Source of the DNA: Bacteroidota bacterium
GTDB taxonomy: Bacteria > Bacteroidota > Ignavibacteria > UBA10030 > UBA6906
Assembly: GCA_041493205.1 (NCBI GenBank)
Contig: JBGPYM010000001.1
Location: 1 to 49,971, forward strand
Length of the DNA stretch: 49,971 nucleotides
Direction: 5' to 3'
In this document: piece by piece, positions 6,753-42,345 of the stretch
Layout: each line of letters begins with the position of its first letter
Position numbering within the stretch: the first letter of the stretch is position 1
Notes under the pieces: model-generated
Told to the model about the DNA's origin: nothing
Database searches by the model: none
What the model saw: the letters and a program-made list of their open reading frames with translations, nothing else
Translations under genes and position numbers: made by a program

Positions 6753-6753
6753 A

Positions 6754-14082: not shown

Positions 14083-16943
14083 CCAGATCGATAACCGCGG
14101 TGCTCGCAGTGCTGGGGCTGGTCTCCACCCTTCATGCTCAGCACGTCTGGTTTGCTGAAGATTTTTCCGCCCCTCCTCCGGCATCACGCTGGCACGCCGC
14201 AACAGGGTCATGGGCGTTTGCCACGGGGAGTGCCCGCCTCAACACTGCGGCATACGATCAACTCCTCGCGTCCGGATACTACGTGTATGACACGCACCCA
14301 TGGTCGGCGGAAGTATCCCTCCGCGGGACGCGCGCCGGACTCTTCTTCGGTCTCGAAGACACCTCTTCCAGGGCGCTCGCGCATATGGTGCGGTTTGACG
14401 ACGGGAGCATGCTTACGGGGTATTTCGATGCTGCAGGCGAGTTCACAGCGACCGGGTCGTTTGCACTGCCGTCCCCGCAGAAGGAATGGAATCTGCTCCG
14501 CATCGATGTCGATCCTGCGCATAGGCGATATTCCGTTTCCGTCGACGGCGTCCTCGCGGGGGTCGATACATCGCTGCTCTTCCCGTCCGGTTTTTTCGGC
14601 CTGCAGGGATCGGAGGGGGTGTCGGAATTCCGGTCTGTGCGAATTTTCAGCGACGTTGCCGCTCCCTCCGCCCCCCGCGCACACCGGGGAACGGTCCCAC
14701 GGTTCAATCATGTGACCTTTGTCCGGGCGGGTCAGAACAACGTGACGATCTATAATCCGGAAGCACGCGCGTATCAGGCGCTTGATCTGCAGGGGAAACT
14801 CCTCCGGGAGCAGAATGGGCGCCCGCCCGCCCCTCCCGAGCCGCGCGCCCGCCGCGGAGATCTGGAAGTCGAAGCATCGGCCGACGGCCTCACCCTGACC
14901 GACACGCGCGATGGCGCGGTGCGCACTGTCCCGGTGCGATTCGGACATCCCACAGCGGTCCTTGTTGATGCGGACACGACCATCTACGTCGCCGATGCCG
15001 CCCGTCGCACGATCGTGGCGGTCCCGATCCACGGTGGCCCGATCCGCACACTGGAGGGGAAATCCATCGGCGGGTTCCTTGCACCGCGGGGCCTCGATTT
15101 CTCCTCCCGTCATCAGATCGTGGTCGCAGACTACAACCGCATCGTGTTCGTTGACGGGAGTCTCGGGGAATCCCCCGCGGTCCGCATCGTACATCCCACC
15201 ACGATCGCCGCCACCTGGATACCCGCGGGGGCTCCGCATCCGGTCGTCCGCCTCAGGAGAGACGGCGGCGCATGGAAATCTTTTGCTGCCGGAACGGACA
15301 AGAAATCGGGTGAGGCAAGCGTGCTCCTGCCGGGACTGCAACCCGCGGCCCGGTACTGCGTGATATTTTCGAACGCATTTAAAGTCATCCCGCCGGCCGG
15401 CGTCTTCTCCCGGGAGTACAGACTCGCAACACCCCCCGCCGATTCCACGCACATGCTCTACGCCCGGCTCCCGGTTCTCTGTATGGTGTACCGTTCGATT
15501 GATTACCGTGACCGGTACCCGGCAGGCCGCTACCCGCGTGTCCCGCCGGGACGGCGTCTGACCGATGAGGACATTGAGGAGCTCAGGCAGGCGTGCCGGT
15601 TCAACGCGGAATTTTACTTTCGCAATTCCGGATGCCGGCTCCTGCTCGATTTTGATTTCTTCGTTGTGGAGGAACCCCTCCGCCTCCGCGACGTCGGTGA
15701 TCAGGATCCATACTGGCTGTCGCCGAACGATCGGGTGGCCCGCGACGTGGAGCACGCCGCACAGTCGTTCGGAAAAACACCCGCCCGCTACGCAGGGGTT
15801 GTCGTGCCCTACGCATGGGAGAATTATCCGCCCCACCGCACGAGCGCGCTGGCCGACCCGTCGAAGCAGGATACTGTGTCCATCCGCCAGGCGTACGGCG
15901 GAGGGACGCTGGGCGTTCCCGCTCCCTGGAAATACGGGACAGGTGCCGGGTATACGGCCAACCCCTTCCAGGACCGATTCAGCCGCCAGGACTGGCTGAT
16001 CACACACGAATTCCACCACCAGCTTGATGCGCTCCTCGACGCGAGCGGAGAACCCGGCTACTATCATGCCGACCAGCCCTGGAAAATGCCGGGACGGTTC
16101 GGAGAGGACTTTGACTTCAACGCACAGATCATCCGCAAGGCGCCGGTGGAATGGTGGCTCGCGATGAAATTCGGCACCCTCGAAGAAACTGCCGATGCGG
16201 ACCATGACTCCGTCCCTGACAACGACCCGCGCCTCCCGTTCGACGAGAAACGGCTCAGGGGAAATCCCCGCCGGATCGACACCGACGGCGACGGACTCAC
16301 GGACCTCGCAGAAGTCATGGCAGGTTCTTCCCGGGGAACATTGCTGGACAACAGGGACTCCGACGCTGACGGCATTGAGGACGGGGCTGATCCCGAGCCG
16401 CTGTACCCCTTCCCCCCGGAGATCCCCCGGCTCCCTGCGGGGCAACTCAGTCCGTCGCGCCCGTTCGCCACACTGCACGGGTCTATGGGGCCGGCGGATC
16501 TCTCCTGGGCGTGGACGGACAGCGCCCTGACTATCGCCTGTGATGCCCCCCTGCCGGCCGGCGTGCTTATCCAGATTGATGCATCGTGCGACGGGTGGTT
16601 TCATGGTTTTGACAATTTCCAGATCCGCATCGGCCGCGATACCGTCGCCGCAACGGTTCTGGACTACTATCTTCGCGACTGTTCGAGCTGGACTGATCCT
16701 CCCCGGGACCGCAAGGACCTTTTGAGACCGCAGGATCTGAAGCTCATTGCGGGAAAGACGGGAGACAGCACCGCAGTCCGCTATCAGACCATCGTAAGGA
16801 TTCCGCGGTGTGATGCATATGGGCTGTCACTGCAGCGAGGGAAGACAATTGCAATCCGTCTGGGGCTCCAGACCGCGACGGATCGCTGGGTGTGGGAGGA
16901 GCTCCTTGAACGGAACGCGATGATGAAGGTGGCGCTGAAGTGA
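14079..16943 (+). CDS. secreted multidomain protein: LamG/DUF1080-like domain, NHL-like repeats, Fn3-like domain, HExxH-containing domain, thrombospondin-type-3-like Ca-binding repeats and a C-terminal beta-sandwich
   Basis: I trimmed the start to ATG 14079, which makes an ATGA overlap and gives the signal peptide MTRSITAVLAVLGLVSTLHAQ. HEFHH lies at nt 16005-16019. NHL-like strings: TIYVADAARRTIVAV and HQIVVADYNRIVFVDG. Asp-rich repeats: DADHDSVPDND, DTDGDGLTD and DSDADGIEDGADPEP. No family assignment is possible by eye. Confidence 0.7.
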   Translation: MTRSITAVLAVLGLVSTLHAQHVWFAEDFSAPPPASRWHAATGSWAFATGSARLNTAAYDQLLASGYYVYDTHPWSAEVSLRGTRAGLFFGLEDTSSRALAHMVRFDDGSMLTGYFDAAGEFTATGSFALPSPQKEWNLLRIDVDPAHRRYSVSVDGVLAGVDTSLLFPSGFFGLQGSEGVSEFRSVRIFSDVAAPSAPRAHRGTVPRFNHVTFVRAGQNNVTIYNPEARAYQALDLQGKLLREQNGRPPAPPEPRARRGDLEVEASADGLTLTDTRDGAVRTVPVRFGHPTAVLVDADTTIYVADAARRTIVAVPIHGGPIRTLEGKSIGGFLAPRGLDFSSRHQIVVADYNRIVFVDGSLGESPAVRIVHPTTIAATWIPAGAPHPVVRLRRDGGAWKSFAAGTDKKSGEASVLLPGLQPAARYCVIFSNAFKVIPPAGVFSREYRLATPPADSTHMLYARLPVLCMVYRSIDYRDRYPAGRYPRVPPGRRLTDEDIEELRQACRFNAEFYFRNSGCRLLLDFDFFVVEEPLRLRDVGDQDPYWLSPNDRVARDVEHAAQSFGKTPARYAGVVVPYAWENYPPHRTSALADPSKQDTVSIRQAYGGGTLGVPAPWKYGTGAGYTANPFQDRFSRQDWLITHEFHHQLDALLDASGEPGYYHADQPWKMPGRFGEDFDFNAQIIRKAPVEWWLAMKFGTLEETADADHDSVPDNDPRLPFDEKRLRGNPRRIDTDGDGLTDLAEVMAGSSRGTLLDNRDSDADGIEDGADPEPLYPFPPEIPRLPAGQLSPSRPFATLHGSMGPADLSWAWTDSALTIACDAPLPAGVLIQIDASCDGWFHGFDNFQIRIGRDTVAATVLDYYLRDCSSWTDPPRDRKDLLRPQDLKLIAGKTGDSTAVRYQTIVRIPRCDAYGLSLQRGKTIAIRLGLQTATDRWVWEELLERNAMMKVALK

Positions 16944-19900
16944 AAAAATATGCATTCCTGGCCGCTGACCCCCGGCATCTCACACCCGAGGAACGGGCGG
17001 CACGGCAGTTTTGCCGGACCCGGTTCGGCCGCACCCTCACTGTGGTGGGCCTCCGGAATCTCCCTTCCCTGCTGGACGCCGGCAGCTCGCCCGCCGTCCT
17101 CTGGTGGCATTACGACGCTTCAACGGACCTCCCTCCTCTCGCGCGCGACCCGGGAGTCATAGCTGCACTCCTGTCGTACCTGGAGCGGGGGGGCGGACTC
17201 TTGCTTTCCCTCCTGGCAGCGCGCTACGCGACTGACCTGGGGATCGAGACAATACCGCCGAACGTGATCGTGAAAGGTGTGTGGGATGAGGAGTGCTGGG
17301 CACCCGGCACTCAGGATATCAGAGGCATGGCGACGCCGCATGGACATCCGCTCTTTGACGGTCTCGGCAAGGGCGCCTACACCTGGAGTCCCGCACGGGG
17401 AGATCCGTTTGCTGCGGCGTGGTACGATCACGGATCTCTCCCGGCATCCGGCCTGGTGGCCGGTGTGGAACGTCAGTACATAGGAATCGACGACCGCAGG
17501 CGCATCGCGATTGAGTACCGCATGGGAAAAGGGCGCGTCCTCACCATCGGCTCCCATTTCTTTTTTGCACATGCCAATCCCCGGTTCCGCCTTCACCTGG
17601 AGCGGCTTGCGTCCAACGGGCTCGCATACCTCTCCTCCCGCACCAGGCCCGCCCGCGGGACCCACTGGTCGTTCGCTCAGAAGCCGCCTGAGGAAATCGC
17701 GCGGAGTTCCCCACCACTCCAAAAGAGTGATCCCGTTCCGTCCGGCAATGTGCTCCCGCCGGGGATACGTCGCCGGCCGGCCACATCCAATGAATTTGAT
17801 ACGGGCGGGCGCCGGATTCTCATCCTCGGTGAAGAATCCCGCGGCATTGATGAGGTCTGGGTGCATCCGCATCGCATTCTGAACGAATTCCGCACAACCT
17901 TCTCCGTCGGTGCAGGGAAGCGCCAGGGCGCCGGTCTGGTTCCTGATGACGTCACGCTCCGTCACGGATTGGTCGTGCGCAATTTCCGGTGCGACGGGGC
18001 GCTGATTGAAGAATCCATCTTTGGAGACCGGGTTCTGCCCGCCGGCGCAGTACGGTACAGGATCGAGTCAACGCTCCCGGTGGTAATCGCAATTGCAGTG
18101 CGCGTGGATCTCCGTGCGATGTGGCCGCTCCCTGCTTCCGCTACGGGAGCGCTCCACTACGGCTGGGACGAAGGTCTCCAGGCCCTCAGCGTGAGCAACG
18201 GAGACGGCAGGGGGGGTTCCCTGATCGGCAGCGGCAAGCGCCCGGACGCGCGACGCATGGAAGCGGTCGGAGGAGAGCACCGGGAAATCGTGCTGGCCCT
18301 GGAGTATACATTCCACCCCGGAGATGCTCCGTTGACGATCGCATTCGCGGGGTCGGCTCATCGTGAGGCAACGGCGGCATACCGGCGGATGGTGAAATCC
18401 ACCGACCGGCGCCTTGCTCTGCAGACACGACACTCCAGCCGGATCATCGAGGGCGCTGCCGTCATCGAGGGACCGGACGCACAATTCAACGAGGGGTACC
18501 GGACGGCGCTGGTCTCCACAGAGCGGTTTTCCGTGGAAGTGCCGGGTCTCGGGCCGTCCCTTATGGCGGGCTATGCCAGCACTGCGCACGGATGGAACGG
18601 TGGACATGCGGTGAGCGGCCGGCCGGGGTATGCGTGGTTCTTCGGCAGGGACAGCGTCTGGACCTCCTTTGCCATGCTCGGGTGCGGCATGCACGATACC
18701 GTACGGGATGTGCTTGCATTTCTCGGGGACCACCAGGATCTCACCGGCAAGATTCTGCACGAGATGACGACGAGCGGATTCACTCACTATGACGCGGCGG
18801 ATGCGACTCCGCTCTATATTATCCTGATGGGGCGTTACCTTACCGCAACGGGTGACGTCCGGTTTGTCCGTTCTCAGAAGGAGAGATTCCGTCGTGCATT
18901 CGCGTATTGCCTGTCGACGGATACGGACGGGGATCATCTGATAGAGAACACCAACGTCGGCCACGGGTGGATCGAGGGGGGTCCACTCTACCCCGTTCAT
19001 ACAGAGCTCTACCTCGCGGCCTGCTGGGGGGAAGCGCTTGCGCAGGCGGCGGCCGTTGCCAGGCGCATGGGAGACGCAAGGCTTGCACGGAAGTGCGGGA
19101 AGGAAGCCCGCGTGGTGGGAAATTCGATCCGGAAGTTGTTTTGGAATCCCGGGACGCGGGTGTACAGCTTCGGAAAGAACGCCGACGGATCGTATCGTTC
19201 CGGGGAGACGGCACTGCAGGCGGTCGCCATGCTCTTCGGGTTGACCGACCGGAAGAACGACGCACATGTCCTTGACCGGCTCGCTTCCGACCAGTTCTCC
19301 GCAGACTGGGGGGTCCGGATGGTCCCGAGGGAAAGCCCGCATTATGATCCTGCGGGGTATCATGAGGGGAGCATCTGGCCCCTATGTACCGGCTGGACCT
19401 CTCTCGCAGAGTTCCTCAACCGCCGGCCGGTTCAGGGATTCATCCACGCGATGGGCAATCTCCAGCTTGGCTGGCACTGGTCTGCGGGGAATTTCCCAGA
19501 GGTCCTGCATGGCGAGCGGTGTGCGCCGGCGGGGGTGTGTGCACACCAGGCCTGGTCCGGGTCCATGGTACTGCAGCCGCTTATCGAGGGGATGCTCGGA
19601 TTCCGCGCGGACGCCTCCGGACGCCGGGTCTCCCTCCGGCCGTATTTCCCCCCCGAGTGGGAGCGGGCCGAGGCCCGCCGGCTGCGTATCGGGAAGGACT
19701 CGATCACGATGACCATGAGAAGACGCATGAACAGGACTTCATTCATCTTCTCTGCGACAACCGCACGACCCATTGAGGTCGAATTCTGCCCCTGGTTCCC
19801 CTGCGGAACGACGCTCCATGCAATTCGCGCCGGATCAATTATCGCGGTTCACGATATTCACGTGAGTGATCCCGACGATGTTCCGCCCCTGCCGTTCACG

Positions 19901-20230
19901 CTCAAGGGAGAATTGCGGGTCACGTATGAACACACGGGGGGGGTTGCTGTGGTACCGCCGGTCGCGCCGCTCATCCCCGGTGAGGCATCATCGGGACTGC
20001 GGTTTATCCGGGACCGGTGGGAGAAGGGTGTGTACGAAATAGTCGTGGAGGGAATGCGGGGAAGGGAGTATATGCTTGACCTCGTGGCCGCCGTTCCGCC
20101 CCGGGAAATCGAACATGCCCGGATACTCCGTCAAGAGGCAGATCGCGTGACGCTCGGGATCAGGTTCGACGGCCAGGATGGCGGTGCAGGGTACGAACGG
20201 AAGAGTGTGCGGACCGTGTGGGAGTTTTGA
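16940..20230 (+). CDS. cytoplasmic GDE_C-type (alpha/alpha)6 glycoside hydrolase carrying a large N-terminal accessory region
   Basis: GTG start overlaps the upstream stop (GTGA). No signal peptide. The core GYAWFFGRDSVWTSF, GKILHEMTTSG, ADATPLYI, DTDGDHLIEN and FSADWGVRMVPRESPHYDPAGYHEGSIWPL is collinear with 6754-9333. The fold of the first 230-330 aa is unclear. Confidence 0.6.
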   Translation: MKKYAFLAADPRHLTPEERAARQFCRTRFGRTLTVVGLRNLPSLLDAGSSPAVLWWHYDASTDLPPLARDPGVIAALLSYLERGGGLLLSLLAARYATDLGIETIPPNVIVKGVWDEECWAPGTQDIRGMATPHGHPLFDGLGKGAYTWSPARGDPFAAAWYDHGSLPASGLVAGVERQYIGIDDRRRIAIEYRMGKGRVLTIGSHFFFAHANPRFRLHLERLASNGLAYLSSRTRPARGTHWSFAQKPPEEIARSSPPLQKSDPVPSGNVLPPGIRRRPATSNEFDTGGRRILILGEESRGIDEVWVHPHRILNEFRTTFSVGAGKRQGAGLVPDDVTLRHGLVVRNFRCDGALIEESIFGDRVLPAGAVRYRIESTLPVVIAIAVRVDLRAMWPLPASATGALHYGWDEGLQALSVSNGDGRGGSLIGSGKRPDARRMEAVGGEHREIVLALEYTFHPGDAPLTIAFAGSAHREATAAYRRMVKSTDRRLALQTRHSSRIIEGAAVIEGPDAQFNEGYRTALVSTERFSVEVPGLGPSLMAGYASTAHGWNGGHAVSGRPGYAWFFGRDSVWTSFAMLGCGMHDTVRDVLAFLGDHQDLTGKILHEMTTSGFTHYDAADATPLYIILMGRYLTATGDVRFVRSQKERFRRAFAYCLSTDTDGDHLIENTNVGHGWIEGGPLYPVHTELYLAACWGEALAQAAAVARRMGDARLARKCGKEARVVGNSIRKLFWNPGTRVYSFGKNADGSYRSGETALQAVAMLFGLTDRKNDAHVLDRLASDQFSADWGVRMVPRESPHYDPAGYHEGSIWPLCTGWTSLAEFLNRRPVQGFIHAMGNLQLGWHWSAGNFPEVLHGERCAPAGVCAHQAWSGSMVLQPLIEGMLGFRADASGRRVSLRPYFPPEWERAEARRLRIGKDSITMTMRRRMNRTSFIFSATTARPIEVEFCPWFPCGTTLHAIRAGSIIAVHDIHVSDPDDVPPLPFTLKGELRVTYEHTGGVAVVPPVAPLIPGEASSGLRFIRDRWEKGVYEIVVEGMRGREYMLDLVAAVPPREIEHARILRQEADRVTLGIRFDGQDGGAGYERKSVRTVWEF

Positions 20231-33918: not shown

Positions 33919-35357
33919 GCCAGCTCAACCCGCGGAAGCCGTCCGAGCGCATGAAGATCGCCCGCCAGGATTCCATTGAGCAGGAGCCGGCGGTGCGGAG
34001 TCTCAACTTCCTGGAGGTCTCCTTCGGTTTCGATGAAGACCGGGCGGTGATCGAGAGCACCCGCTGCCTCGAATGCAAGACGCCCTATTGTACCGACGGC
34101 TGTCCCGTCGGGATTGACATCCGCGGGTTCATCCAGCTTGTCCTGCAGAAGGACTATGTCGGCGCCGTGCGGAAGATCCGCGAGGCGAATTACCTTCCAG
34201 CCATTTGCGGCCGCGTCTGTCCGCAGGAATCTCAGTGCGAGGCGGTGTGCGTCATGGGGAAGAAGCTCGAGCCGGTGGCCATCGGCAAACTCGAGCGGTT
34301 TGTCGCCGACTATGAAATGAAGAACGACCTGTTCACGCCCCCGGCCCTTCCGGCTGCCCGCGAGGAAAAGGTCGCGATCGTGGGTTCGGGACCCTCCGGG
34401 CTCACCTGCGCTGCCGAGCTGGCCCAGCGGGGGTACCGCGTGACGGTGTTCGAAGCCCTGCACGCCGTAGGAGGAGTCCTCCGGTACGGGATCCCTGAGT
34501 TCCGCCTTCCGAAGGAAATCCTCGACCTTGAGACCGAGAGGATCAAGGCCCTTGGCGTGGAAATTTACACGAACTTCGTCGTGGGCAGGACGGCGACCAT
34601 CGACGAACTCTTCGGCGAATGGGGTTTCCGGGCGATCTTCCTCGGCACGGGGGCCGGTACGCCGACATTCCTCGGCATCCCGGGCGAGAGCCTGAGCGGC
34701 GTTTACTCCGCCAATGAGTTTCTGACGCGCGTCAACCTGATGGGCGCCTACAAGTTCCCGAAGAATGACACGCCGATAAGAATCGGGCGTTCGGTGGGGG
34801 TGATCGGTGGGGGGAATACCGCGATGGATGCCGTCAGGACAGCGCGCCGTCTCGGCGCGGAGCATGCGTATCTGATCTACCGGCGCTCGCGGCAGGAGAT
34901 GCCCGCACGAGAGGAGGAGATCCACCATGCCGAGCAGGAAGGAATAGAATTTCTGCTTCTCACAAATCCGTTGCGGATCCTGGGGGATGCGAACAACTGG
35001 GTGAACGGCATCGAGTGCCAGAGGATGGAGCTGGGGGAACCGGACGCTTCGGGACGCCGGAGGCCGGTGGCAGTGCCGGGATCAGAATTCATCGTCCCGC
35101 TGCAGACACTGGTCGAGGCGATCGGCCAGAAGCCCAATCCGATCATCCAGGCGACCACACCCGGCCTCGAAACCGGGTCGCGCGGCACGGTGGTTATTAA
35201 TGAGCGGCAGGGAACGAGCCGGCCGGGAATATTTGCAGGCGGCGACCTCTCACGCGGGGGCGCGACCGTGATCCTTGCCATGAAGGATGGAAAGGCCGCG
35301 GCGCAGGCGATTCACGAGTATTTGAATCCCAACCACACGGCGGTGATGGCTTCGTAA
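33915..35357 (+). CDS. NADPH-dependent glutamate-synthase small-chain-like oxidoreductase (GltD / NfnB family)
   Basis: I trimmed the start to ATG 33915. Fe-S cysteines: CLECKTPYCTDGCP and CGRVCPQESQCEAVC. Dinucleotide folds: VAIVGSGPSGL and VIGGGNTAMD. No GltB large subunit is nearby, which favours an NfnAB-type pair. Confidence 0.8.
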   Translation: MSQLNPRKPSERMKIARQDSIEQEPAVRSLNFLEVSFGFDEDRAVIESTRCLECKTPYCTDGCPVGIDIRGFIQLVLQKDYVGAVRKIREANYLPAICGRVCPQESQCEAVCVMGKKLEPVAIGKLERFVADYEMKNDLFTPPALPAAREEKVAIVGSGPSGLTCAAELAQRGYRVTVFEALHAVGGVLRYGIPEFRLPKEILDLETERIKALGVEIYTNFVVGRTATIDELFGEWGFRAIFLGTGAGTPTFLGIPGESLSGVYSANEFLTRVNLMGAYKFPKNDTPIRIGRSVGVIGGGNTAMDAVRTARRLGAEHAYLIYRRSRQEMPAREEEIHHAEQEGIEFLLLTNPLRILGDANNWVNGIECQRMELGEPDASGRRRPVAVPGSEFIVPLQTLVEAIGQKPNPIIQATTPGLETGSRGTVVINERQGTSRPGIFAGGDLSRGGATVILAMKDGKAAAQAIHEYLNPNHTAVMAS

Positions 35358-35362
35358 GAAAA

Positions 35363-35389
35363 CAGGGGTCACCCATCGGGTGACCCCTG
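35363..35389 (-). terminator. intrinsic terminator (shared by convergent operons; canonical on the minus strand)
   Basis: A perfect 12-bp GC-rich stem, CAGGGGTCACCC (35363-35374) with GGGTGACCCCTG (35378-35389), and a 3-nt loop. On the minus strand the hairpin is followed by TTTT (complement of 35359-35362). It lies 6 nt after the plus-strand stop and about 50 nt after the cytochrome gene stop. Confidence 0.75.
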
Positions 35390-35436: not shown

Positions 35437-36684
35437 TTATTTGCCCCGTTTGGCCCGCAAATCGGCGGCCAATGATTTGATTTCCACCAGGTCCCGCTGC
35501 ATTTCGCTCCAGCCGTACCAGAGTGCATAGTCGGGACTCGCGTGAAACGTTCCCTGAAATGCGCGCATCCGGTGCTCCAGGAACATGACGAACAGTTTCT
35601 GTTCGATGACCGTGGGCGCGTCGTGGAACGTCAGGATATCGGGAAATGCGTGGGCATAGTTCTTTGGCTTCGCCAGTTTCCCCTCCTTATACAGGTCCGC
35701 CACGATCCGGATGGCTTCGGCCATGACCCGGTCCGTGTGCCGGATCATCTGGTCCCCTTTTTCCAGCTCCGCGCGGGCGAAGTTCTCCGAATGACACCGG
35801 CGGCAGGTTTTCAGCATCTTGTCCCGTTCGAACTGCCAGTCCTCCTGCTTCAACCGCGCAACATTCGCCGCCTTTACGACCTCAAGCCGGGCCGTCGGCT
35901 TGCCATCCGGGTCAAGCACACCCAGGGCCTGAAGGATCGTCACCCGGTCCGCGGCCCATTCCTTGTTCTCCGGGAGGGGAAGGCGCACGCCCAGGAACCC
36001 CCACGCCGTGGAGACGCCGTGATTGCCCTCCTGCATGTGGCAATCCTGGCACGTGGGAGCCGGCGTGTCGTCAGGAAGCACTTTGCTTTGCCTGAGCAGC
36101 GCACGCACGCCGTGCTTTGAGCTTGAATACATCTCCCACTGTGCATGGTCGAACCCCATGTGGCAAGTCTGGCACGCCTGGGGTTGTTTAGCCTCGACCA
36201 CCGAAAACGTGTGTCGCGTGTGGCACGCATCGCAGGAGGCAAGTCCGAATCCCCCGCCACGCTGCTTCAGTTTCTTGATTTCCGCCTCCGTCTTGAGTCC
36301 TATCTTGTGGCACCCGCCGCATCCCTTCATGCCGTCGATAAGCTCCATCGGCTGCCAGTGGATGGTGGGCATTGCTTCCTGGGAGGCCCAGGCGAGCGCA
36401 TGCTTTCCCCCCTTGAACTGTTCCAACTGCTTCTCATGACATTCCCCGCAGGTTTCGGGGGTCGGGATCTTGACGTTGGCGACGTCAAGAGTCGTGATGT
36501 GCTTGTCCCCGTGACATGTCTCGCATCCCACGCCGTTCTTGCTGTGCTTGCTCAGTTCCCAGTCGGCCACAATCCCCGGCGTGAGCCTCCTGTGGCAGTC
36601 GACGCATATCTGGGGATCGAGCGGACGGGCAAGCGCGGTCGCACATGCGGCAGACATCAGAAGGGTGGTAAGAGCTCTGTTCAT
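35437..36684 (-). CDS. periplasmic octahaem c-type cytochrome, hydroxylamine-oxidoreductase (HAO)-like family, short form
   Basis: 415 aa with signal peptide MNRALTTLLMSAACATALA. Eight CxxCH motifs: CVDCH, CETCH, CGECH, CGGCH, CDACH, CQTCH, CQDCH and CRRCH. The helical C-terminal region (...FLEHRMRAFQGTFHASPDYALWYGW...) is reminiscent of HAO/epsilon-Hao proteins. Confidence 0.7.
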   Translation of the reverse strand: MNRALTTLLMSAACATALARPLDPQICVDCHRRLTPGIVADWELSKHSKNGVGCETCHGDKHITTLDVANVKIPTPETCGECHEKQLEQFKGGKHALAWASQEAMPTIHWQPMELIDGMKGCGGCHKIGLKTEAEIKKLKQRGGGFGLASCDACHTRHTFSVVEAKQPQACQTCHMGFDHAQWEMYSSSKHGVRALLRQSKVLPDDTPAPTCQDCHMQEGNHGVSTAWGFLGVRLPLPENKEWAADRVTILQALGVLDPDGKPTARLEVVKAANVARLKQEDWQFERDKMLKTCRRCHSENFARAELEKGDQMIRHTDRVMAEAIRIVADLYKEGKLAKPKNYAHAFPDILTFHDAPTVIEQKLFVMFLEHRMRAFQGTFHASPDYALWYGWSEMQRDLVEIKSLAADLRAKRGK

Positions 36685-37520
36685 AGGTGCTCCTTGGTCA
36701 ACGTTGGTGGTGGAGTGTTCACATCTGCCTCGCGGACGGACATCACAACCAGGTCGCGAGACAAAGCCGCGTCATACACATCCATAGAGATCCCCCCGAA
36801 CAGACGGGTGTCCCCGAACCCGCTGCGGTGCATCATCGTCGTCAGTTCTGTGCTGCGGAGAGGACGCAGCGGCACTGTCATGTGCGACTGCCCCGCATCC
36901 CCTCCCTGTTTCTCAAGCCGGAGGAGGTTGAACAGAATGAGGTCCCCCGCCAGTCCGTAGTCGTACATCCGCACGTACGTCGCGTTGCCGCTTTCTCTGA
37001 CGCTCTGCACGCGCGTGCGCGAGGACATGATCCTGTCGTAGTTGAGCAGCTGCAGAAAGAGCATGCCGCCCGGCCGCAGAACGGCGTGAAAATTGCCGAG
37101 GGTGCGCAGGAGGTCGTTGTCGGTGAGAAGGTGCGGGAGCGCATTCCCGAGACAGAAGACCGCGTCGAACGGGCCCTGTACATTCTCCTGAAGATCCTGA
37201 AAGGTCGAGCGCACCGGGCGGACGCGCAAATCCATCGAACGTGCGTGTGCGTCAAGACGGTCCATCATTTCCCGGGACACGTCGACCGCGGTAACGTCCA
37301 CGCCGAGTTGCGCGAGGAGCAGTGCATGGAAGCCTGTGCCGCAGCCGGCGTCGAGTGCGGTCCGTATCCCCTTCTGTTCCACCAGGAGCCGGAAGAAAGG
37401 GCGTTCCTGCGCGAACCGTTTGTCGAAGCCCGTCATCGCATCGTATTCGGGCGCCAGGCGGTCATAAAAGTCCGCTACCCCGTTCTGCGTATGCTCTGCC
37501 GTGTCAGTCATTGGGGCCAT
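36681..37520 (-). CDS. class I SAM-dependent methyltransferase (glycine/sarcosine N-methyltransferase-like small-molecule MTase)
   Basis: Motif I ALDAGCGTG. The post-I acidic residue is in VTAVDVS. AVFCLGNALPHL and VLRPGGMLFLQLLNYD resemble the GNMT-type fold. I trimmed the start to ATG 37520, with ATG 37511 as an alternative. The stop overlaps the cytochrome ATG (ATGA at 36681-36684). Confidence 0.75.
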   Translation of the reverse strand: MAPMTDTAEHTQNGVADFYDRLAPEYDAMTGFDKRFAQERPFFRLLVEQKGIRTALDAGCGTGFHALLLAQLGVDVTAVDVSREMMDRLDAHARSMDLRVRPVRSTFQDLQENVQGPFDAVFCLGNALPHLLTDNDLLRTLGNFHAVLRPGGMLFLQLLNYDRIMSSRTRVQSVRESGNATYVRMYDYGLAGDLILFNLLRLEKQGGDAGQSHMTVPLRPLRSTELTTMMHRSGFGDTRLFGGISMDVYDAALSRDLVVMSVREADVNTPPPTLTKEHL

Positions 37521-38619
37521 AGTCCGCAACCTGCCCGCGGAAATGTTTGTAGACCGGCGCATCCAGCTGCTGGAACCTGCGCTGATATTCCGATTGCGCA
37601 ACCGCATTCTGCCAGTGTCCGGAGAGCATCGCAAGTCCGGTCACGGCGACAAACGTTCCCACGACCAGGGCGCCCAACGCCCAGGAAGGTACCGGGGTCG
37701 CACGCGGTGAGAATTTCATGGCAAGTGTGTTTTTCACCGGACAGGCCTCGACGCACGCCATGCAACTTGTGCATTCATCGCTCCAGACCCTCGTCGCCGT
37801 ATGCACGGTGATGCCGGAGGGACATGCTTTCGAGCAGAGCGCGCAATCGATGCACGTGGCACTGGTCCGCGTGATCTTGAGCGGGCTGAGCCAGCCTGCG
37901 ATGCCGAGCAGGGCGCCGTACGGACAGAGGAACCTGCACCAGAAATTCTTGATGACGACGGACAGGAGCATCAGTATGATAATGGTCCAGAGGGCGAAAG
38001 AAGAGATCTGTGCAAAGAAGAGATACATCTTTATGTCCGCCACCTTATTATACGGACTGTAAATGAAGTTCTCAAGGCCCCGCACATCCATTGCCAGAAC
38101 GGACCAGAGAAAGAACCCGAGGAGCAGGTACTTGAGAGACCGGAGGGGAGCGTCCAGCCAGCGTGGGAGAGTCAGGTTCCTTTTGAAGATTCTTTTCCCC
38201 AGGAGCCAGAGGGATTCGCTCAACGTGCCGACCGGGCAGAGCCAGCTGCAGAACGACTTCTTCAGAGCCACGCTGGCGAGGGCAATCGCCGCAAGAATGA
38301 AGAGACCCGACGGATGGACCGCGTTGATGATCCCGGTTTGAAAGAAGTATTTGAGACTGATCAGCCCGCTGATGGGGAGGAAACCTTCGACGCCGGGGGG
38401 GCGCGGGACGAATGGCTCCTCCCCGCCGGAAATGCCCCACCGCATAAAGAGGTGAAACTCAATGCCGATCCAGAGGAGGAGGAGCACGAATGCGAGCTGC
38501 ACTGCGCTGCGGAGGAATTGCGAATCTTCGCGCAGCCGCCAGAGGAGCCGCCTGTACCAGATTCGTTCGCTCCCGTACGGGTTCAGCCTCCTGCGCAAGG
38601 AAACCGGAATCTTCTTCAT
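37504..38619 (-). CDS. membrane-bound polyferredoxin, NapH/FixG-like (4Fe-4S binding)
   Basis: I trimmed the start to ATG 38619 (MKKIPVSL...). Several TMs. Two CX3CP motifs (CSWLCPVG, CRFLCPYG). Two ferredoxin motifs (CIDCALCSKACP, CTSCMACVEACP). The start overlaps the Rrf2 stop (ATGA). Confidence 0.75.
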   Translation of the reverse strand: MKKIPVSLRRRLNPYGSERIWYRRLLWRLREDSQFLRSAVQLAFVLLLLWIGIEFHLFMRWGISGGEEPFVPRPPGVEGFLPISGLISLKYFFQTGIINAVHPSGLFILAAIALASVALKKSFCSWLCPVGTLSESLWLLGKRIFKRNLTLPRWLDAPLRSLKYLLLGFFLWSVLAMDVRGLENFIYSPYNKVADIKMYLFFAQISSFALWTIIILMLLSVVIKNFWCRFLCPYGALLGIAGWLSPLKITRTSATCIDCALCSKACPSGITVHTATRVWSDECTSCMACVEACPVKNTLAMKFSPRATPVPSWALGALVVGTFVAVTGLAMLSGHWQNAVAQSEYQRRFQQLDAPVYKHFRGQVADYGPND

Positions 38620-39044
38620 TGGTACTCCTTCTTCTTCATCTCCCCTGCCATCTGCCCGATGTTCCTGCTGACGAGCATCGCATAGATGCCCTCGCGGAGG
38701 CCGGCCCATTTATCGTGAACGGCGCACGGATTTTTTCCCGAGCACTCCGGAAATCCCATGACACACTGCTGGGTGAAATCGACGCCGTCGACCGCCTCGA
38801 TAATATGAAAGAGTGTCATCTCCTTTGCAGGCATTGCCAGCCCGAAGCCGCCGGTGGGGCCCCTCAGCGAGGTCAGAAGTCCCTTCCGGCTGAGACGCTG
38901 CAGTATTTTTGCCAGGAAATGATGCGGGATCCGGAGCTTCCCGGCAAGCTCTTTGATGGATGTGAGCTCCCCATCTTTCTTGAGGGCGAGAAACGTGACC
39001 GCCTGGAGGGCGTACTCACACTGCCGGCTGAATATCAGGCTCAT
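38616..39044 (-). CDS. Rrf2-family transcriptional regulator with Fe-S cluster cysteines (IscR/NsrR-like)
   Basis: 142 aa. N-terminal winged HTH (YALQAVTFLA...SIKELAGKLRIPHHFLAKILQRLSRKGLL). Cys-X6-Cys-X5-Cys (QQCVMGFPECSGKNPC) sits at the position of the cluster ligands of IscR/NsrR. Confidence 0.85.
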   Translation of the reverse strand: MSLIFSRQCEYALQAVTFLALKKDGELTSIKELAGKLRIPHHFLAKILQRLSRKGLLTSLRGPTGGFGLAMPAKEMTLFHIIEAVDGVDFTQQCVMGFPECSGKNPCAVHDKWAGLREGIYAMLVSRNIGQMAGEMKKKEYQ

Positions 39045-39055
39045 GGAATAATATC

Positions 39056-39099
39056 AGACTTATTAGTCTTAAATTAACAACTCAACAAGAAAAAGTCAA
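39056..39099 (-). promoter_or_regulatory. candidate promoter plus palindromic operator for the Rrf2-led operon
   Basis: On the minus strand: TTGACT (complement of 39094-39099), a 17-nt spacer and TAATTT (complement of 39071-39076). It is followed by the AT-rich imperfect palindrome AGACTTATTAGTCT (39056-39069, 12 of 14 positions symmetric), about 12 nt upstream of the Rrf2 ATG. Confidence 0.4.
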
Positions 39100-39188: not shown

Positions 39189-40298
39189 ATGATCCGGTTT
39201 GACAGGAATGAGTTTTCGGGGGCTTTCGGCGATATCGGGACGGACCTTCCGCTCCTCGTCGGCATGATACTGGCGTCGGGTCTCGACGCCGGGGGGGTGC
39301 TGATTGTCTATGGGTTAATGCAGATCGCCACTGCACTCGTGTACGGCATTCCGATGCCGGTGCAGCCGTTGAAAGCGGTTGCCACCCTGGTGATCGCACA
39401 GAAAATTGCGGGACCGGTCGTGCTGGGCGCAGGCCTTGCAATCGGCATTGTCATGCTGCTCCTGACGGTCACCGGCCTGCTCCAGTGGCTGGCCAACAGC
39501 ATTCCGCGTTCCGTCGTTCGCGGGATTCAGTTCGGCCTCGGTCTGCAGCTTTCGCTCCTCTCCCTCACCAACTATATACAGTCCGGAGGGGTGACGGGAT
39601 ACATACTGGCGGCGGTGGCGTTCGCCATCACGGTGCTCCTTCTCGGCAACCGGCGGTTTCCCCCAGCGCTCTTTGTCATCGGCCTCGGCGTTGTGTATGC
39701 GACCATCGCGCACTATGACCCGGCAGCCCTGGCCTCGAGTTTCGGTCTTTCCTTCCCGGCGTTCACGGTTCCTTCGACCGCCGACATCGGCACCGGGCTC
39801 GTGCTCCTTGCCCTCCCGCAGATCCCGCTCTCCTTCGGCAATTCGATCCTGGCAACCCAGCGGATTGCAGCAGATTATTTCCCCGAGTCGCGGATCACCA
39901 TCCCGCGGATTGGCTTGACGTATTCGCTGATGAACCTCGTTGCACCGTTCTTCGGCGGGGTGCCCGTCTGTCACGGTTCGGGAGGGATGGCGGGGCATTA
40001 CGCGTTCGGTGCACGGACGGGGGGATCCGTCGTGATCTACGGCGGGATGTACATCATTCTCGGACTCTGCTTCGGTCCGGGGTTCACGTCACTTATCCAC
40101 GTCTTCCCTCTGCCGCTGCTCGGCGTCATCCTGCTCTTTGAGGGAGCCGCACTTATTCGTCTGCTGGCTGACACGGTCCCGGTCAGGGCTCATCTGGGAA
40201 CGGCGGTCCTGGTCGGTCTCCTGTGCGTGGGTTTGCCCTACGGCTATCTCGTCGGCCTGGTGATCGGCACGATCCTCGCCCGCGTCCTGAGGGAATAG
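39189..40298 (+). CDS. MOT-family putative molybdate/sulfate transporter
   Basis: 369 aa, polytopic. It carries the two family-typical motifs FSGAFGDIGTDLPLL and VCHGSGGMAGHYAFGARTGG, as in eukaryotic MOT1/MOT2-type transporters. Confidence 0.7.
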   Translation: MIRFDRNEFSGAFGDIGTDLPLLVGMILASGLDAGGVLIVYGLMQIATALVYGIPMPVQPLKAVATLVIAQKIAGPVVLGAGLAIGIVMLLLTVTGLLQWLANSIPRSVVRGIQFGLGLQLSLLSLTNYIQSGGVTGYILAAVAFAITVLLLGNRRFPPALFVIGLGVVYATIAHYDPAALASSFGLSFPAFTVPSTADIGTGLVLLALPQIPLSFGNSILATQRIAADYFPESRITIPRIGLTYSLMNLVAPFFGGVPVCHGSGGMAGHYAFGARTGGSVVIYGGMYIILGLCFGPGFTSLIHVFPLPLLGVILLFEGAALIRLLADTVPVRAHLGTAVLVGLLCVGLPYGYLVGLVIGTILARVLRE

Positions 40299-40305: not shown

Positions 40306-41562
40306 CTACACCTGCAATCCCATCCGTTCTTTCCCCGTCTCCGCGAACACCGTACGGAGGACCTTCTCTTCGACCCCGGAGAGCTCGATCTTCCTTCGCC
40401 CCATGACCCTCCGGGCGACCTCCAGTGCCTTGTCCAGATCGTAGGTGCTCAACCCTTCGGCCCCTCCCCATGCGAAGGACGGAATGCTCTTCGGGGGGAA
40501 CCCGCTCCCGAAGACGTTGCTCGAGACGCCGACGACCGTCCCGGTGTTGAACATCGAATTGATCGAGCTCTTGGAATGGTCACCCATGACCAGTCCCATG
40601 AACATCGAACCGGTGTCAACGGTGTTCCCGTCGATCACCATCTTCACGTTGCCGTAATTGTTTTTCAGATCGCTGTTGTTGGTGTCAGCGCCCAGGTTCA
40701 CCCACATGCCGAGGTACGCATGACCGAGAAACCCGTCATGCTGCTTGTTGGAGTACGCATGAATGATGGCGCCCTCCACCTCTCCGCCCACCTTGCAGAC
40801 TTCGCCGATGCTGGTCTGCTCATAGATCTTGGCGCCGATCTTGATGAGCGTCCGGTCGCCGATGAATGTCGGCCCTTCGATGACGGCGTTGGGGAATACC
40901 GTCACATTCCTGCCGATGTAAATCGGTCCGTTCTCGGCATCCAGGACGGCGCCCGTCTTGATCTTCGACCCTTCGCCGATCACGATGGCACCGGGGTTGA
41001 TCAGGTGCGCCCCTTCGTAGACCGTGCCCGCCATGCGGCGGGACGGTTCCGGAGCGAGGAGGGCACAGTCCGCGGTGATCTCATCCCCGTTGTGATGAAT
41101 CAGATCCCAGGGGTACCCGATCGCCGTTACGTTCACGGTCGTCACCGGAAGCGCACCGAATGTCCGGGGGGTCAGGACGTCGGGCAGGTCGTTCCTGACC
41201 GTATCGAGTGCCCGTCCGCTGACGCGCGCTGCAACGAGAGTCTCCCCCGTTACAAAGAGCCCGTCGGGTCCGTCCGGCGGCAGGAGGGTGGCCAGGTTTC
41301 CCGCGGCCAGGACGCGTCCGTTGATGAACAGACACCGGTCCCCCTCCACCCTGTTCACGGGAATGCCGGGATTCTGCTGCTCCACAAGTTTACCGAGATA
41401 CCCGCGGGTGTGCAGATGAACGCGGGCGCCGGGGAACGACCGTTCTATTTTTCCGCGGAGCGTAAGAATGCCGCACCGCAGGTCGTACACCGGCCGCACA
41501 TAGACCAGGGGGAGGAGCCGGCGGTGGAATTCGTCCTCAAAGATGCAGATGCTCTGGGTCAT
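40306..41562 (-). CDS. putative sugar nucleotidyltransferase / acyltransferase, 'alternative bacterial GlmU'-like (left-handed beta-helix)
   Basis: 418 aa. The N-terminus ICIFEDEFHRRLLPLVYVRPVYDLRCGILTL is typical of this family. The C-terminal half consists of hexapeptide repeats ([LIV]G..). Confidence 0.65.
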   Translation of the reverse strand: MTQSICIFEDEFHRRLLPLVYVRPVYDLRCGILTLRGKIERSFPGARVHLHTRGYLGKLVEQQNPGIPVNRVEGDRCLFINGRVLAAGNLATLLPPDGPDGLFVTGETLVAARVSGRALDTVRNDLPDVLTPRTFGALPVTTVNVTAIGYPWDLIHHNGDEITADCALLAPEPSRRMAGTVYEGAHLINPGAIVIGEGSKIKTGAVLDAENGPIYIGRNVTVFPNAVIEGPTFIGDRTLIKIGAKIYEQTSIGEVCKVGGEVEGAIIHAYSNKQHDGFLGHAYLGMWVNLGADTNNSDLKNNYGNVKMVIDGNTVDTGSMFMGLVMGDHSKSSINSMFNTGTVVGVSSNVFGSGFPPKSIPSFAWGGAEGLSTYDLDKALEVARRVMGRRKIELSGVEEKVLRTVFAETGKERMGLQV

Positions 41563-41577
41563 GTCGTCAACGTTGCA

Positions 41578-42345
41578 TTACTCGAAGATTTTGGATTCCC
41601 ACGTATCATTATAGAGACCGGTGAGCTTGGTCGCCGCGGCCTTGTCAAGGAACACGAACGCAAGACGGTGCATCTGTATGATCGATGCGGGGCACATGGC
41701 CGTCAGCGGGCCCTCCACTGCCGCACGGACCGCGTCGGCTTTCCCGGTGCCGTTCGCCACCAGGACCAGCTGCTTCGCGTCCATGATCGTTCCTACCCCC
41801 ATCGTGATCGCATACCGCGGGACTTCCTCTTTCGTCTTGAAGAACCGTGCGTTGTCCATGCGCGTCGTCCCCGTCAGGGTTTTGATGCGCGTCCGGGAGC
41901 CGAGCGACGACCCCGGTTCGTTGAAGGCGATATGGCCGTTGGCGCCGATCCCGAGCACCTGCAGGTCGATGCCACCAACCTCGCGCATGCGTGATTCGTA
42001 CCAGTCGCAGAAAAGATCGATGTCTTTCGCCATTCCCTGGGGCACATGAATGTGCCGGGGATCGATGTTGATGTGCTTGAAGAGGTTCTCCTGCATGAAG
42101 AAGTGATAGCTCTGATCATGGGACGGCTGCAGGCCGACGTATTCGTCAAGATTAAACGTCGTGATCTTCGAAAAATCGAGACCCTCGTCCCTGTACATGC
42201 GGATCAGCTCCTTGTACATCCCGAGCGGGGAGCTGCCGGTGGCGAGGCCAAGAACAAGGTTGGGTTTCCTGCGGATGCGGTCAGCAACGAGCCGGGCAGC
42301 TTCCCTGCTCATGGCATCATAGTTTTCCAGTACGGTGACTAGCAC
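41578..42345 (-). CDS. nagB: glucosamine-6-phosphate deaminase
   Basis: 255 aa. LGLATGSSP, FNLDEY, DLQVLGIGANGHIAFNEPGS and TMGVGTI motifs. Confidence 0.9.
   Translation of the reverse strand: MLVTVLENYDAMSREAARLVADRIRRKPNLVLGLATGSSPLGMYKELIRMYRDEGLDFSKITTFNLDEYVGLQPSHDQSYHFFMQENLFKHINIDPRHIHVPQGMAKDIDLFCDWYESRMREVGGIDLQVLGIGANGHIAFNEPGSSLGSRTRIKTLTGTTRMDNARFFKTKEEVPRYAITMGVGTIMDAKQLVLVANGTGKADAVRAAVEGPLTAMCPASIIQMHRLAFVFLDKAAATKLTGLYNDTWESKIFE

Follow-up and report, generated by a model that had tools for sequence, protein, structure and literature searches.

In octahaem cytochromes of the HAO family, absence of the cross-linking Tyr is taken to favour reductive catalysis (PMC12758564, PMC8940962, citing Ferousi 2021), and that non-nitrifiers carry HAO-like genes without this Tyr is already well established from metagenomic work (PMC8940962, PMC11266412). 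For εHao of Campylobacterota and for the Tyr-less hao genes of anoxic metagenomes, a reductive role has been proposed, i.e. nitrite or hydroxylamine reduction (PMC5317091, PMC8940962). The described protein that best matches the cytochrome analyzed here is Kustc0458 (HAOr) of Kuenenia stuttgartiensis (PDB 6h5l), a Tyr-less HAO that reduces nitrite to NO. Our cytochrome, a periplasmic protein of 415 aa encoded at 35437-36684 on the minus strand, has eight CxxCH motifs and matches PF13447 (7.9e-31), and Kustc0458 is its top match by sequence (phmmer 1.6e-32, profile 9.3e-61) as well as by fold (6h5l_A, TM 0.70, for an AF2 model with a pLDDT of 89), which establishes the HAO-family octahaem cytochrome of the initial annotation as genuine. 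Both proteins share the eight haems and the distal Asp-His pair (Asp179-His180 in our cytochrome), and both are without the cross-linking Tyr: Leu388 occupies the aligned position of NeHAO Tyr467 and ksHOX Tyr415 (chain index), and Kustc0458 has a Trp. It is this Leu388 that assigns the cytochrome to the reductive-type HAOs. Differences to Kustc0458 are the identity of only ~26%, a sequence that is ~100 residues shorter, with haem 1 directly after the signal peptide, a ~19-residue insertion after the haem-4 motif, the absence of a Kustc0457-like dihaem partner gene at the operon, and a host that is not an anammox bacterium. With εHao of Nautilia, Campylobacter and Caminibacter, compared by description only, the cytochrome shares the missing Tyr, the octahaem HAO-family type and a host that is no nitrifier, but no nap cluster or NapC/NrfH-type gene was found near its operon, and its nearest 50%-identity cluster representatives are all from uncultured Desulfobacterota or archaea.

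In the window, i.e. the whole 49,971-nt stretch of DNA that was analyzed, the cytochrome gene is the last of four minus-strand genes that form a real operon. The first gene, rrf2 (38616-39044), encodes an Rrf2-family transcription factor of 142 aa and is followed by the genes of a NapH/NosR-type membrane polyferredoxin (37504-38619, 371 aa) and of a cytoplasmic class I SAM methyltransferase (36681-37520, 279 aa); public gene calls agree with all four product lengths. The overlaps that had been noticed initially are all present: the rrf2 and polyferredoxin genes share an ATGA (38619-38616), as do the methyltransferase and cytochrome genes (36684-36681), and the stop codon of the polyferredoxin gene (37504-37506) overlaps the methyltransferase start by 17 nt (ATG 37520) or 8 nt (ATG 37511). 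A scan between the operon genes found no terminator or promoter that would separate them. On its 3' side, the run is bounded by a strong intrinsic terminator (35356-35389, minus strand) with a G+C-rich hairpin of 12-13 bp; the closing hairpin described before, perfect over 12 bp with a 3-nt loop, lies at 35363-35389, and TTTTCTT comes next. With overlapping genes, one conserved promoter and one terminator, the claim of a single operon holds, and profile searches agree with the family names that had been given to all four proteins. Around the operon lie housekeeping genes, and the 50-kb window was found to contain no further N-oxide gene.

The 5' boundary is made up of a conserved promoter and operator. 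A -35-like hexamer TTGACT (39094-39099, minus strand) was read in the sequence and is separated by a spacer of 17 nt from a -10-like hexamer TAATTT (39071-39076, minus strand). A generic sigma-70 scan did not pick up this element, as TAATTT has just three of six positions in common with TATAAT; the layout TTGAC(T/A)-17 nt-TAnnTT is repeated 5' of the rrf2 orthologues in loci L001, L081 and L083. The -10-like hexamer directly abuts a putative Rrf2 operator, AAGACTAATAAGTCTGA (39054-39070, minus strand), which is an imperfect palindrome with the half-site (A/C)AGAC and a 6-nt spacer and ends 9 nt before the rrf2 ATG. As a palindrome by itself, this AT-rich element of the initial annotation is weak, with AGAC/GTCT cores and no 6-nt seed found; what stands is a conserved box. 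Aligned upstream regions (n=41) give a consensus that begins with TAnnTT-AAGAC, and the box AAGAC-N6-GTCTGA (including the -10 element, TAnnTT-AAGAC-N6-GTCTGA), counted as present at 9 or more of 11 matching positions, is found in 39 of 52 loci at a distance of 3-17 nt upstream of the rrf2 start, as compared to ~1% of random 100-nt windows. The window contains no other strong copy. At orphan cytochrome loci, 4 of 79 reach 9/11, which is about chance level.

Conservation of the four-gene arrangement in related genomes, on which the initial annotation had made its reading depend, is indeed found: the arrangement recurs in Bacteroidota/Ignavibacteriota MAGs (L001, L022, L023, L038, L051, L097), is partly kept in L009, L039 and L059, and is rearranged in L058, where a second operator box lies directly 5' of a separately transcribed unit of polyferredoxin, cytochrome, hemerythrin/PAS and methyltransferase genes, with the polyferredoxin gene 17 nt upstream of the cytochrome gene. 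The idea of a self-contained four-gene module is nevertheless not supported, as the conserved unit is a three-gene cassette of rrf2, polyferredoxin and methyltransferase genes, which is widespread and previously undescribed, and the place downstream of it can be taken by several interchangeable genes, among them that of the cytochrome. Upstream of polyferredoxin homologues, rrf2 is found in 42 of 62 loci, and the two genes are the tightest pair among close homologues (37/48 loci); the methyltransferase gene is downstream in 29 of 54. An HAO-like gene follows in only one of 25 polyferredoxin-centred loci, so the link between cytochrome and cassette is lineage-specific, and of 80 cytochrome-centred loci no more than 9 contain the module genes, with the cytochrome gene next to that of the polyferredoxin. 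In other cassettes, the cargo consists of hemerythrin, RIC-type, NorB-like, NrfA-like, DUF438 or DUF1858 genes. Among 132 neighbouring ORFs of sister cassettes, there are 11 hemerythrins and four each of NorB/COX1, DUF438+PAS_10 and DUF1858, and ScdA_N/hemerythrin RIC, NrfA-like cytochrome c552 and NOR-like clusters with DUF2249 also occur beside them. NO-responsive regulons classically include RIC/YtfE, Nor and Nrf. The exchangeable cargo thus points to reactive-nitrogen stress, and these accessory genes are in keeping with the originally suggested link to NO, nitrite or hydroxylamine.

The polyferredoxin, for which profile searches find two Fer4_5 domains and a dicluster ferredoxin, resembles NapH, MauN, the C-terminal module of NosR/NirI and CcoG in its two CX3CP motifs at TM helix ends and in the C-terminal ferredoxin domain, whose two [4Fe-4S] motifs (CxxCxxCxxxCP) are predicted to be cytoplasmic. 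Unlike these proteins, it is below all curated cut-offs (NapH: E = 1.8e-26, 92.9 bits, cut-off 234), has an additional, fifth predicted TM helix, and ends in a conserved C-terminal tail (...EYQRRF..P.Y.H....YGPND) that is predicted to be periplasmic. Its gene comes after rrf2 and usually ahead of the methyltransferase gene, and has no NapG, NapA, NosZ or cbb3 oxidase genes alongside. The topology, in which the predicted periplasmic loops are also strongly conserved, is based on hydropathy and the positive-inside rule. The methyltransferase (Methyltransf_25, 7.7e-20) has its top structural-database and NCBIfam matches among GNMT/GSMT enzymes, with GSMT 5h02 as closest PDB match (6e-23) and 111.6 bits with the bacterial Gly/Sar methyltransferase model (cut-off 350). 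It keeps the CLGN(S/A)xxHL (CLGNxxxHL) and NYD motifs, but the Arg of D(H/Q)RNYD, which we take to be GNMT Arg175 that binds the substrate carboxylate, is a Leu, and glycine or sarcosine is therefore unlikely as substrate.

The regulatory part of the locus can be compared with the NsrR regulons of E. coli, Bacillus and Streptomyces. It shares with them an Fe-S Rrf2 repressor (here by sequence), a palindromic operator that overlaps the promoter, and, at sister loci, genes for di-iron RIC/hemerythrin, NO-reductase-like and cytochrome c nitrite-reductase-like proteins. In contrast to NsrR, the Rrf2 protein (PF02082 1.7e-29; TIGR00738 107 bits) has a Cys spacing of x6/x5 plus a His and an N-terminal Cys-Glu, and its operator has a different sequence, presumably unlike the E. 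coli NsrR box. The predicted Fe-S ligands, C94-x6-C101-x5-C107-x2-H110 and C9-E10, are (nearly) invariant in 51 orthologues (C9 1.0, E10 0.98, C94 1.0; C101, C107 and H110 at least 95%). To our knowledge, polyferredoxin and methyltransferase partner genes are absent from described NsrR regulons, and literature searches found nothing of this kind.

We consider it about an even chance (probability ~0.5) that the four genes form a stress operon which is repressed by its own Rrf2 protein, with an NO/nitrite-type signal and a reductive HAO-type cargo. The Fe-S Rrf2 protein would bind the AAGAC-N6-GTCTGA box, thereby covering the transcription start, and would be released upon damage or modification of its cluster, with NO or nitrite-derived species as the most probable cause. 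De-repression would affect a core pair, the polyferredoxin translationally coupled to the GNMT-like methyltransferase, together with the lineage-added cargo, a secreted, minimal, Tyr-less octahaem enzyme whose periplasmic reduction of nitrite, NO or hydroxylamine would serve detoxification rather than respiration, with electrons possibly from polyferredoxin-bound quinol or from unlinked periplasmic cytochromes. The HAO-type enzyme most likely would serve in defence against nitric oxide, nitrite or hydroxylamine. Other settings of the cytochrome agree with this reading: in five Desulfobacterota-type loci, cytochrome c and NorB-like genes are found upstream of its gene.

Could the regulator sense something other than NO? 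Like IscR or RsrR, it might respond to the status of Fe-S clusters or iron or to the redox state of the quinone pool, and the cassette would then be a redox/metal homeostasis unit in which the polyferredoxin might relay the membrane redox state to Rrf2, with the cytochrome as unrelated passenger. The tight rrf2-polyferredoxin pairing would agree with this, as would the closest PDB matches (RsrR and IscR), the source annotation as iron-sulfur cluster assembly regulator, and a Cys3 + His motif that we take to be similar to the IscR ligand set. With higher scores for IscR (67.7 bits) and for SufR (64 bits) than for NsrR (46.7 bits, cut-off 182), and with a box presumably unlike that of E. coli NsrR, the protein could indeed have such a signal. 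None of the scores, however, comes near the curated cut-offs of the IscR, SufR, RirA, NsrR and CymR equivalogs, isc or suf genes adjoin the cassette in no locus examined, and the neighbours are enriched in the NO-associated genes mentioned above, which makes such a homeostasis unit unlikely, though worth considering.

It is clearly unlikely that the operon is a respiratory module, e.g. for nitrite ammonification, in which the NapH-like polyferredoxin oxidises menaquinol and replaces NrfH/NapC- or c554-type partners as dedicated donor of the cytochrome. Co-transcription of the two genes, their proximity in L058, the absence of any other c-type cytochrome gene within the 50-kb window, and the conserved periplasmic loops and tail, which could form a quinol or docking site, are consistent with this electron partnership, which the initial annotation had proposed. 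Yet most loci of either family lack the other, with the conserved cassette mostly lacking the cytochrome, and the polyferredoxin is elsewhere paired with cytoplasmic hemerythrins or alone with the methyltransferase; its clusters are predicted to be cytoplasmic, the operon contains no NapG-like periplasmic subunit or haem b component as outward carrier, and Rrf2 repression is generally typical of stress regulons and less of respiratory operons. The role as dedicated donor is therefore unsupported. A mobile orphan cytochrome gene might also simply have landed 3' of an unrelated cassette and be expressed by passive read-through, as members of the cytochrome family from ten or more phyla are still ~70% identical, usually without a conserved neighbour, and the ATGA overlap with the methyltransferase gene is specific to the window, with gaps of 38-102 nt at related loci. 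Such a chance event is very improbable, since the association recurs in at least nine genomes, with a different gene order in L058, no other family is found as often directly upstream of the cytochrome as the methyltransferase (9/72 loci), and the operon genes are not separated by terminators or promoters.

The four-gene operon of the window is probably a stress operon under repression by Rrf2, with core genes that are unusual yet conserved, and it is less exotic than the initial annotation had proposed. The genes lie on the minus strand in the order rrf2 (38616-39044), polyFd (37504-38619, encoding a membrane polyferredoxin of the NapH/NosR type), MTase (36681-37520, encoding a SAM methyltransferase) and the gene of an octahaem HAO-like cytochrome (35437-36684). 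The first and the last pair are joined by ATGA junctions (38619-38616 and 36684-36681, respectively), and polyFd and MTase overlap by 17 nt (37504-37520) or, alternatively, by 8 nt. All these reading frames and overlaps had been called before from the sequence, and we found them at exactly the same coordinates. The public gene calls for the contig contain the same four products, three of them labelled "polyferredoxin", "SAM-dependent methyltransferase" and "hydroxylamine dehydrogenase". A longer 401-aa polyFd reading frame from 38709 was dropped in favour of the ATGA-coupled 371-aa form, as the latter is used by the closest homologues and in the public gene calls. The operon ends with a terminator at 35363-35389, where the previously described perfect 12-bp hairpin is indeed present, is G+C-rich and is followed by the T-rich tract TTTTCTT.

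The G+C content of the module (59.8%) is similar to that of the window (61.6%). The flanks are formed by a sugar nucleotidyltransferase gene, a glucosamine-6-P isomerase-like gene and a convergent NfnAB/GltD-like pair, with arginine biosynthesis and glycoside hydrolase genes as further neighbours. As the flanking genes are unrelated, the operon constitutes a discrete island, and no other nitrogen-cycle genes were found in the 50-kb window. Divergent from rrf2, and sharing a 144-bp intergenic region with it, lies a gene for a MOT1-family molybdate transporter (39189-40298, plus strand). A series of genes for glycoside hydrolases (GH38 alpha-mannosidase, several MGH1-like hydrolases) occupies 2705-20230 together with an amino-acid permease gene, and the host is apparently a heterotroph that degrades polysaccharides.

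The initial annotation had regarded the genes as a self-contained four-gene module. They are contiguous here, but the neighbourhoods of polyFd, which like the cytochrome belongs to a large family, indicate that the conserved unit comprises only three genes. Among 80 polyFd-centred metagenome loci, counting those with enough flanking sequence, rrf2 lies immediately upstream of polyFd in 42 of 62 cases (37/48 for homologues with at least 60% identity) and MTase immediately downstream in 29 of 54 (27/38), while a HAO-like cytochrome gene follows within 3 kb in 1 of 25 (1/16), namely at the locus L097. On long contigs, we found rrf2-polyFd-hemerythrin beside a divergent Crp-family gene and a RIC gene of the ScdA_N/hemerythrin type, rrf2-polyFd-MTase alone or with a hemerythrin gene behind it, and HemN-like-rrf2-polyFd-MTase followed by a NOR-like cluster (COX1, DUF2249, cytochrome c, DUF1858/DUF2249/TusA, COX1). 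In an unbiased Pfam census of 132 same-strand neighbouring ORFs of polyFd, hemerythrins (11) and Fe-S proteins (8) lead, followed by NorB/COX1, DUF438 with PAS_10, DUF1858 and c7-type cytochromes with 4 each. These neighbour counts and the census argue for rrf2-polyFd-MTase as the conserved cassette and for the cytochrome as one of several exchangeable cargo genes. Genes of the NrfA-like cytochrome c552 family also adjoin rrf2-polyFd (L059:1778-3415; L117, L149, L161 and L162), and this NrfA-like gene is another periplasmic nitrite-reductase-type cargo of the same cassette. In Bacteroidota and Ignavibacteriota, homologues of the cassette number in the thousands, and it is very common in members of these groups from wastewater, sediment and soil; a literature search of incomplete coverage yielded no description of it or of its operator.

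The cytochrome family comprises more than 7,400 matching cluster representatives and at least 587 GTDB species representatives. Conserved cytochromes occur in Bacteroidota, Ignavibacteriota, Thermodesulfovibrionia, Thermodesulfobacteriota, Acidobacteriota, Zixibacteria, Elusimicrobia, Verrucomicrobiota and Planctomycetota as well as in Bacillota- and Actinomycetota-labelled MAGs. The protein is about 70-77% identical across at least 10 phyla and yet usually has no conserved neighbour, which suggests strong purifying selection and horizontal transfer of a single-gene function. The four-gene arrangement does recur in other genomes, and among the 80 best genome loci of the cytochrome the full set is found only in L001, L022, L023, L038 and L051. 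L059 lacks MTase, L009 and L039 end at a contig edge with MTase present, and L058 is rearranged to polyFd-cytochrome-DUF438/hemerythrin/PAS/DUF2249-MTase with a divergent rrf2. Clustering of all flanking ORFs of the 80 loci revealed no neighbour common to more than 10 of them. Immediately upstream of the cytochrome gene, class I methyltransferases are most common in the Pfam census (9/72), followed by small c3/c7-type cytochromes (5/72), and at five Desulfobacterota-type loci the gene lies downstream of genes for a cytochrome c and a NorB-like haem-copper oxidase. Several four-gene relatives encode an extra cytoplasmic protein of about 250 aa between polyFd and MTase (L022:4337-5119, L023:4345-5094, L038:4383-5177, L051:4278-5054, L097:8153-8932), which is absent from the window; at its N-terminus lies a 2x[4Fe-4S] ferredoxin domain, and its C-terminal part is rich in Cys.

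The regulator belongs to the Rrf2 family (PF02082, 1.7e-29) and scores below the curated cut-offs of IscR, SufR, RirA, NsrR and CymR, reaching 46.7 bits against a cut-off of 182 for NsrR and 67.7 bits against 207.55 for IscR. In an alignment of 51 orthologues, C9, E10 and C94 are (nearly) invariant, and C101, C107 and H110 are kept at 95% or more. Three conserved C-terminal Cys residues, as typical for NsrR, are thus present with C94, C101 and C107 in x6/x5 spacing. No isc or suf genes adjoin in any locus examined. The conserved candidate ligands, together with the family scores below cut-off, argue that this Rrf2 is a putative cluster-binding protein of a distinct subfamily.

A promoter-like element and a palindrome upstream of rrf2 had already been described, and both are present on the minus strand: a -35-like TTGACT (39099-39094), after a 17-nt spacer a -10-like TAATTT (39076-39071), and directly thereafter the putative operator AAGACTAATAAGTCTGA (39070-39054), with 9 nt between its end and the ATG of rrf2. 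Each element is weak when regarded alone, and they gain significance only through the other loci. A generic promoter scan did not list the TTGACT/TAATTT site, because TAATTT agrees with TATAAT at only 3 positions, and a seed-based repeat finder did not pick up the short palindrome. The upstream regions of 52 rrf2 genes, in turn, have the consensus TAnnTT-AAGAC-N6-GTCTGA-T in common; 39 of the 52 carry the box at 9/11 or better, a score reached by about 1% of random 100-nt windows, and the box ends 3-17 nt before the start codon. The layout TTGAC(T/A)-17-TAnnTT is common to the window, L001, L081 and L083, and at L058, which has its rrf2 in divergent orientation and at a distance, the polyFd-cytochrome operon is directly preceded by a second box. 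The window contains no second credible box; the sole other match, at 27061, is weak and was treated as chance. Orphan cytochrome genes are not enriched in the box (4 of 79 loci at 9/11, which is about chance), and an apparent box in L031 was dismissed as degenerate. The position of the box, next to the -10 element and across the likely start of transcription, is the classic one for a repressor. Within the polyFd coding region, a near-consensus sigma-70-like site (38047-38075, minus strand; TTGAGA, 17-nt spacer, TATAAT, 11/12 matches) could either serve as an internal promoter or be due to chance, with 1.2 such sites per region in shuffled sequences.

PolyFd contains two Fer4_5 motifs (CX3CP) and two CxxCxxCxxxCP motifs, all invariant in the alignment. 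The earlier assignment as NapH-like holds with regard to the CX3CP motifs and to the similarity to NapH (1.8e-26), which extends to the C-terminal part of NosR, but the protein remains under all cut-offs, with 92.9 bits against 234 (NF007013) and 90.3 bits against 213 (TIGR02163) for the NapH models. The architecture of NapH, with four transmembrane helices, two CX3CP motifs and two cytoplasmic [4Fe-4S] clusters, is recognizable, and polyFd differs by a fifth helix and an external tail; the NapH partner NapG and a nap operon are absent from the window and all related loci examined. Hydropathy and the positive-inside rule predict five transmembrane helices, with the N-terminus, both CX3CP motifs and the ferredoxin domain on the cytoplasmic side and two strongly conserved loops and the conserved C-terminal tail (W..N..EY..RF..P.Y.H...V..YGPND) outside. 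The AF2 model is of low confidence (pLDDT 59), and a sequence search of solved structures returned only generic ferredoxin domains, none of which covers the membrane part.

MTase is, as proposed, a class I SAM enzyme. Its top matches are glycine/sarcosine N-methyltransferases (PDB 5h02 at 6e-23), but it reaches only 111.6 bits against the cut-off of 350 of the corresponding NCBIfam model. The CLGNxxxHL and NYD motifs of GNMT/GSMT are present, whereas LQLLNYD (37008-37028, residues ~165-171) replaces D(H/Q)RNYD, with Leu for Arg, and this Arg is missing from the orthologues as well. It is presumably Arg175 of GNMT, which binds the carboxylate of the substrate glycine, and its replacement by Leu argues against glycine or sarcosine as substrate. 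The 17-nt overlap with polyFd is conserved in the window, L082, L083, L166 and L168, and this translational coupling suggests that polyFd and MTase act together.

The cytochrome has a signal peptide and eight CxxCH motifs, which follow the family order and are invariant in a 46-sequence alignment. Its former assignment to the HAO family is well borne out by PF13447 (7.9e-31), by the predicted fold and by the distal Asp-His pair, which we take to be the catalytic pair of this family: CHMGFDH (D179-H180) corresponds to GVDH of NeHAO and to G(P/I)DH of Kustc0458/ksHOX. With the AF2 model (pLDDT 89), the top 11 Foldseek matches are all HAO, HDH, HOX or IhOCC (TM 0.62-0.70), led by the reducing HAO Kustc0458 (6h5l_A; TM 0.70, 26% identity) and followed by NeHAO, HDH, ksHOX and IhOCC; NrfA structures gave no significant match. 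In contrast to oxidative HAO, HOX and HDH enzymes of the P460 type, the cytochrome lacks the Tyr that forms a cross-link with haem 4 of the adjacent subunit. NeHAO Tyr467 and the ksHOX Tyr (chain index 415) fall into one profile column, which holds Leu388 in the cytochrome, Leu in the family consensus and Trp in Kustc0458. Unlike all solved HAOs, the cytochrome lacks the N-terminal region, and a ~19-residue insertion, KIGLKTEAEIKKLKQRGGGFGLAS, directly follows the catalytic haem-4 CGGCH (36235-36306, residues ~127-150); none of the solved HAO, HOX, HDH and HAOr structures in the profile alignment has this insertion. A lipoprotein nature (Cys14) was discarded, as this Cys is not kept in homologues such as that of L058. 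In contrast to εHao, whose genes are associated with nap genes or with a cytochrome of the NapC/NrfH type, there are no nap genes in the window, and the cytochrome gene is the sole c-type cytochrome gene in the 50 kb. The nearest 50%-identity cluster representatives all stem from uncultured organisms, and the cluster members of the ten nearest all bear names of uncultured MAGs. In the literature, a missing cross-link is held to favour reductive catalysis (PMC12758564; PMC8940962). Tyr-less hao genes of non-nitrifiers are well documented and generally read as εHao- or HAOr-like reductases (PMC5317091, PMC8940962, PMC11266412, PMC12758564), and the cytochrome is an uncharacterised new member of this known kind; searches for octaheme HAO with Rrf2 and for HAO-like proteins in Ignavibacteria/Bacteroidetes returned only general statements on such genes.

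In the mechanism that we infer, including its inducing signal, cytochrome substrates and electron path, Rrf2 would repress its own operon through the box, and loss or modification of its Fe-S cluster would lift the repression. NO-responsive regulons comprise families such as RIC/ScdA-type and other hemerythrins, NorB-like oxidases, NrfA-like cytochromes and DUF438/DUF1858/DUF2249 proteins. Because the accessory genes of the cassette belong to these families, reactive nitrogen would be the most likely signal, and the Tyr-less HAO-type enzyme, which is secreted, would serve as a periplasmic reductase of nitrite, NO or hydroxylamine.

From where could the electrons come? The initial annotation had let polyFd take the place of NrfH or c554 as donor of the cytochrome, which is possible and fits the absence of any other cytochrome gene from the window. 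We nevertheless disfavour this model, as the two families mostly occur independently, with the cytochrome behind polyFd at that single locus of 25. The sole other conserved cytoplasmic partners for the cytoplasm-facing Fe-S clusters of polyFd are Rrf2 and MTase. A further, rather unlikely reading would make the cassette an undescribed membrane-coupled sensing/detoxification system. Therein, polyFd would connect cytoplasmic Fe-S chemistry with the quinone pool and reduce or repair the sensor cluster of Rrf2, or reduce an N-oxide, the GNMT-like MTase without the carboxylate-binding Arg would methylate a small nucleophile, e.g. hydroxylamine, and the Tyr-less HAO, hemerythrin and NOR-like oxidase would be interchangeable periplasmic or di-iron effectors.

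As for the proposed Rrf2-repressed stress operon itself, we know of no member of the highly conserved minimal clade of cytochromes with known function, regulator or electron donor, and the locus places one such Tyr-less hao gene under a defined conserved promoter and putative operator, which offers a direct experimental handle. In anoxic metagenomes, Tyr-less hao genes rank among the most abundant of all genes with a nitrogen-cycle annotation (PMC8940962). If the cassette is NO-responsive, it would define the regulon with which a major group of heterotrophs, living beside nitrifiers, denitrifiers and anammox bacteria, responds to nitrosative stress, and it would indicate a new role for NapH/NosR-type polyferredoxins.

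At one related locus (L165:4781-5003, on contig_13506 of 965,899 bp), a standalone MTase orthologue lies behind Glucosamine_iso and NTP_transf_4 genes, the two that also adjoin the module in the window (40306-42345). In front of this orthologue, a piece of the polyFd 3' end is left, with the translation ...TGQWQNAISRAEYQRRFEQTDSPLYNHFRGHVPQYGPN, which indicates a deletion of rrf2-polyFd at this locus. A copy of rrf2-polyFd-hemerythrin is retained at another place of the contig (L081).
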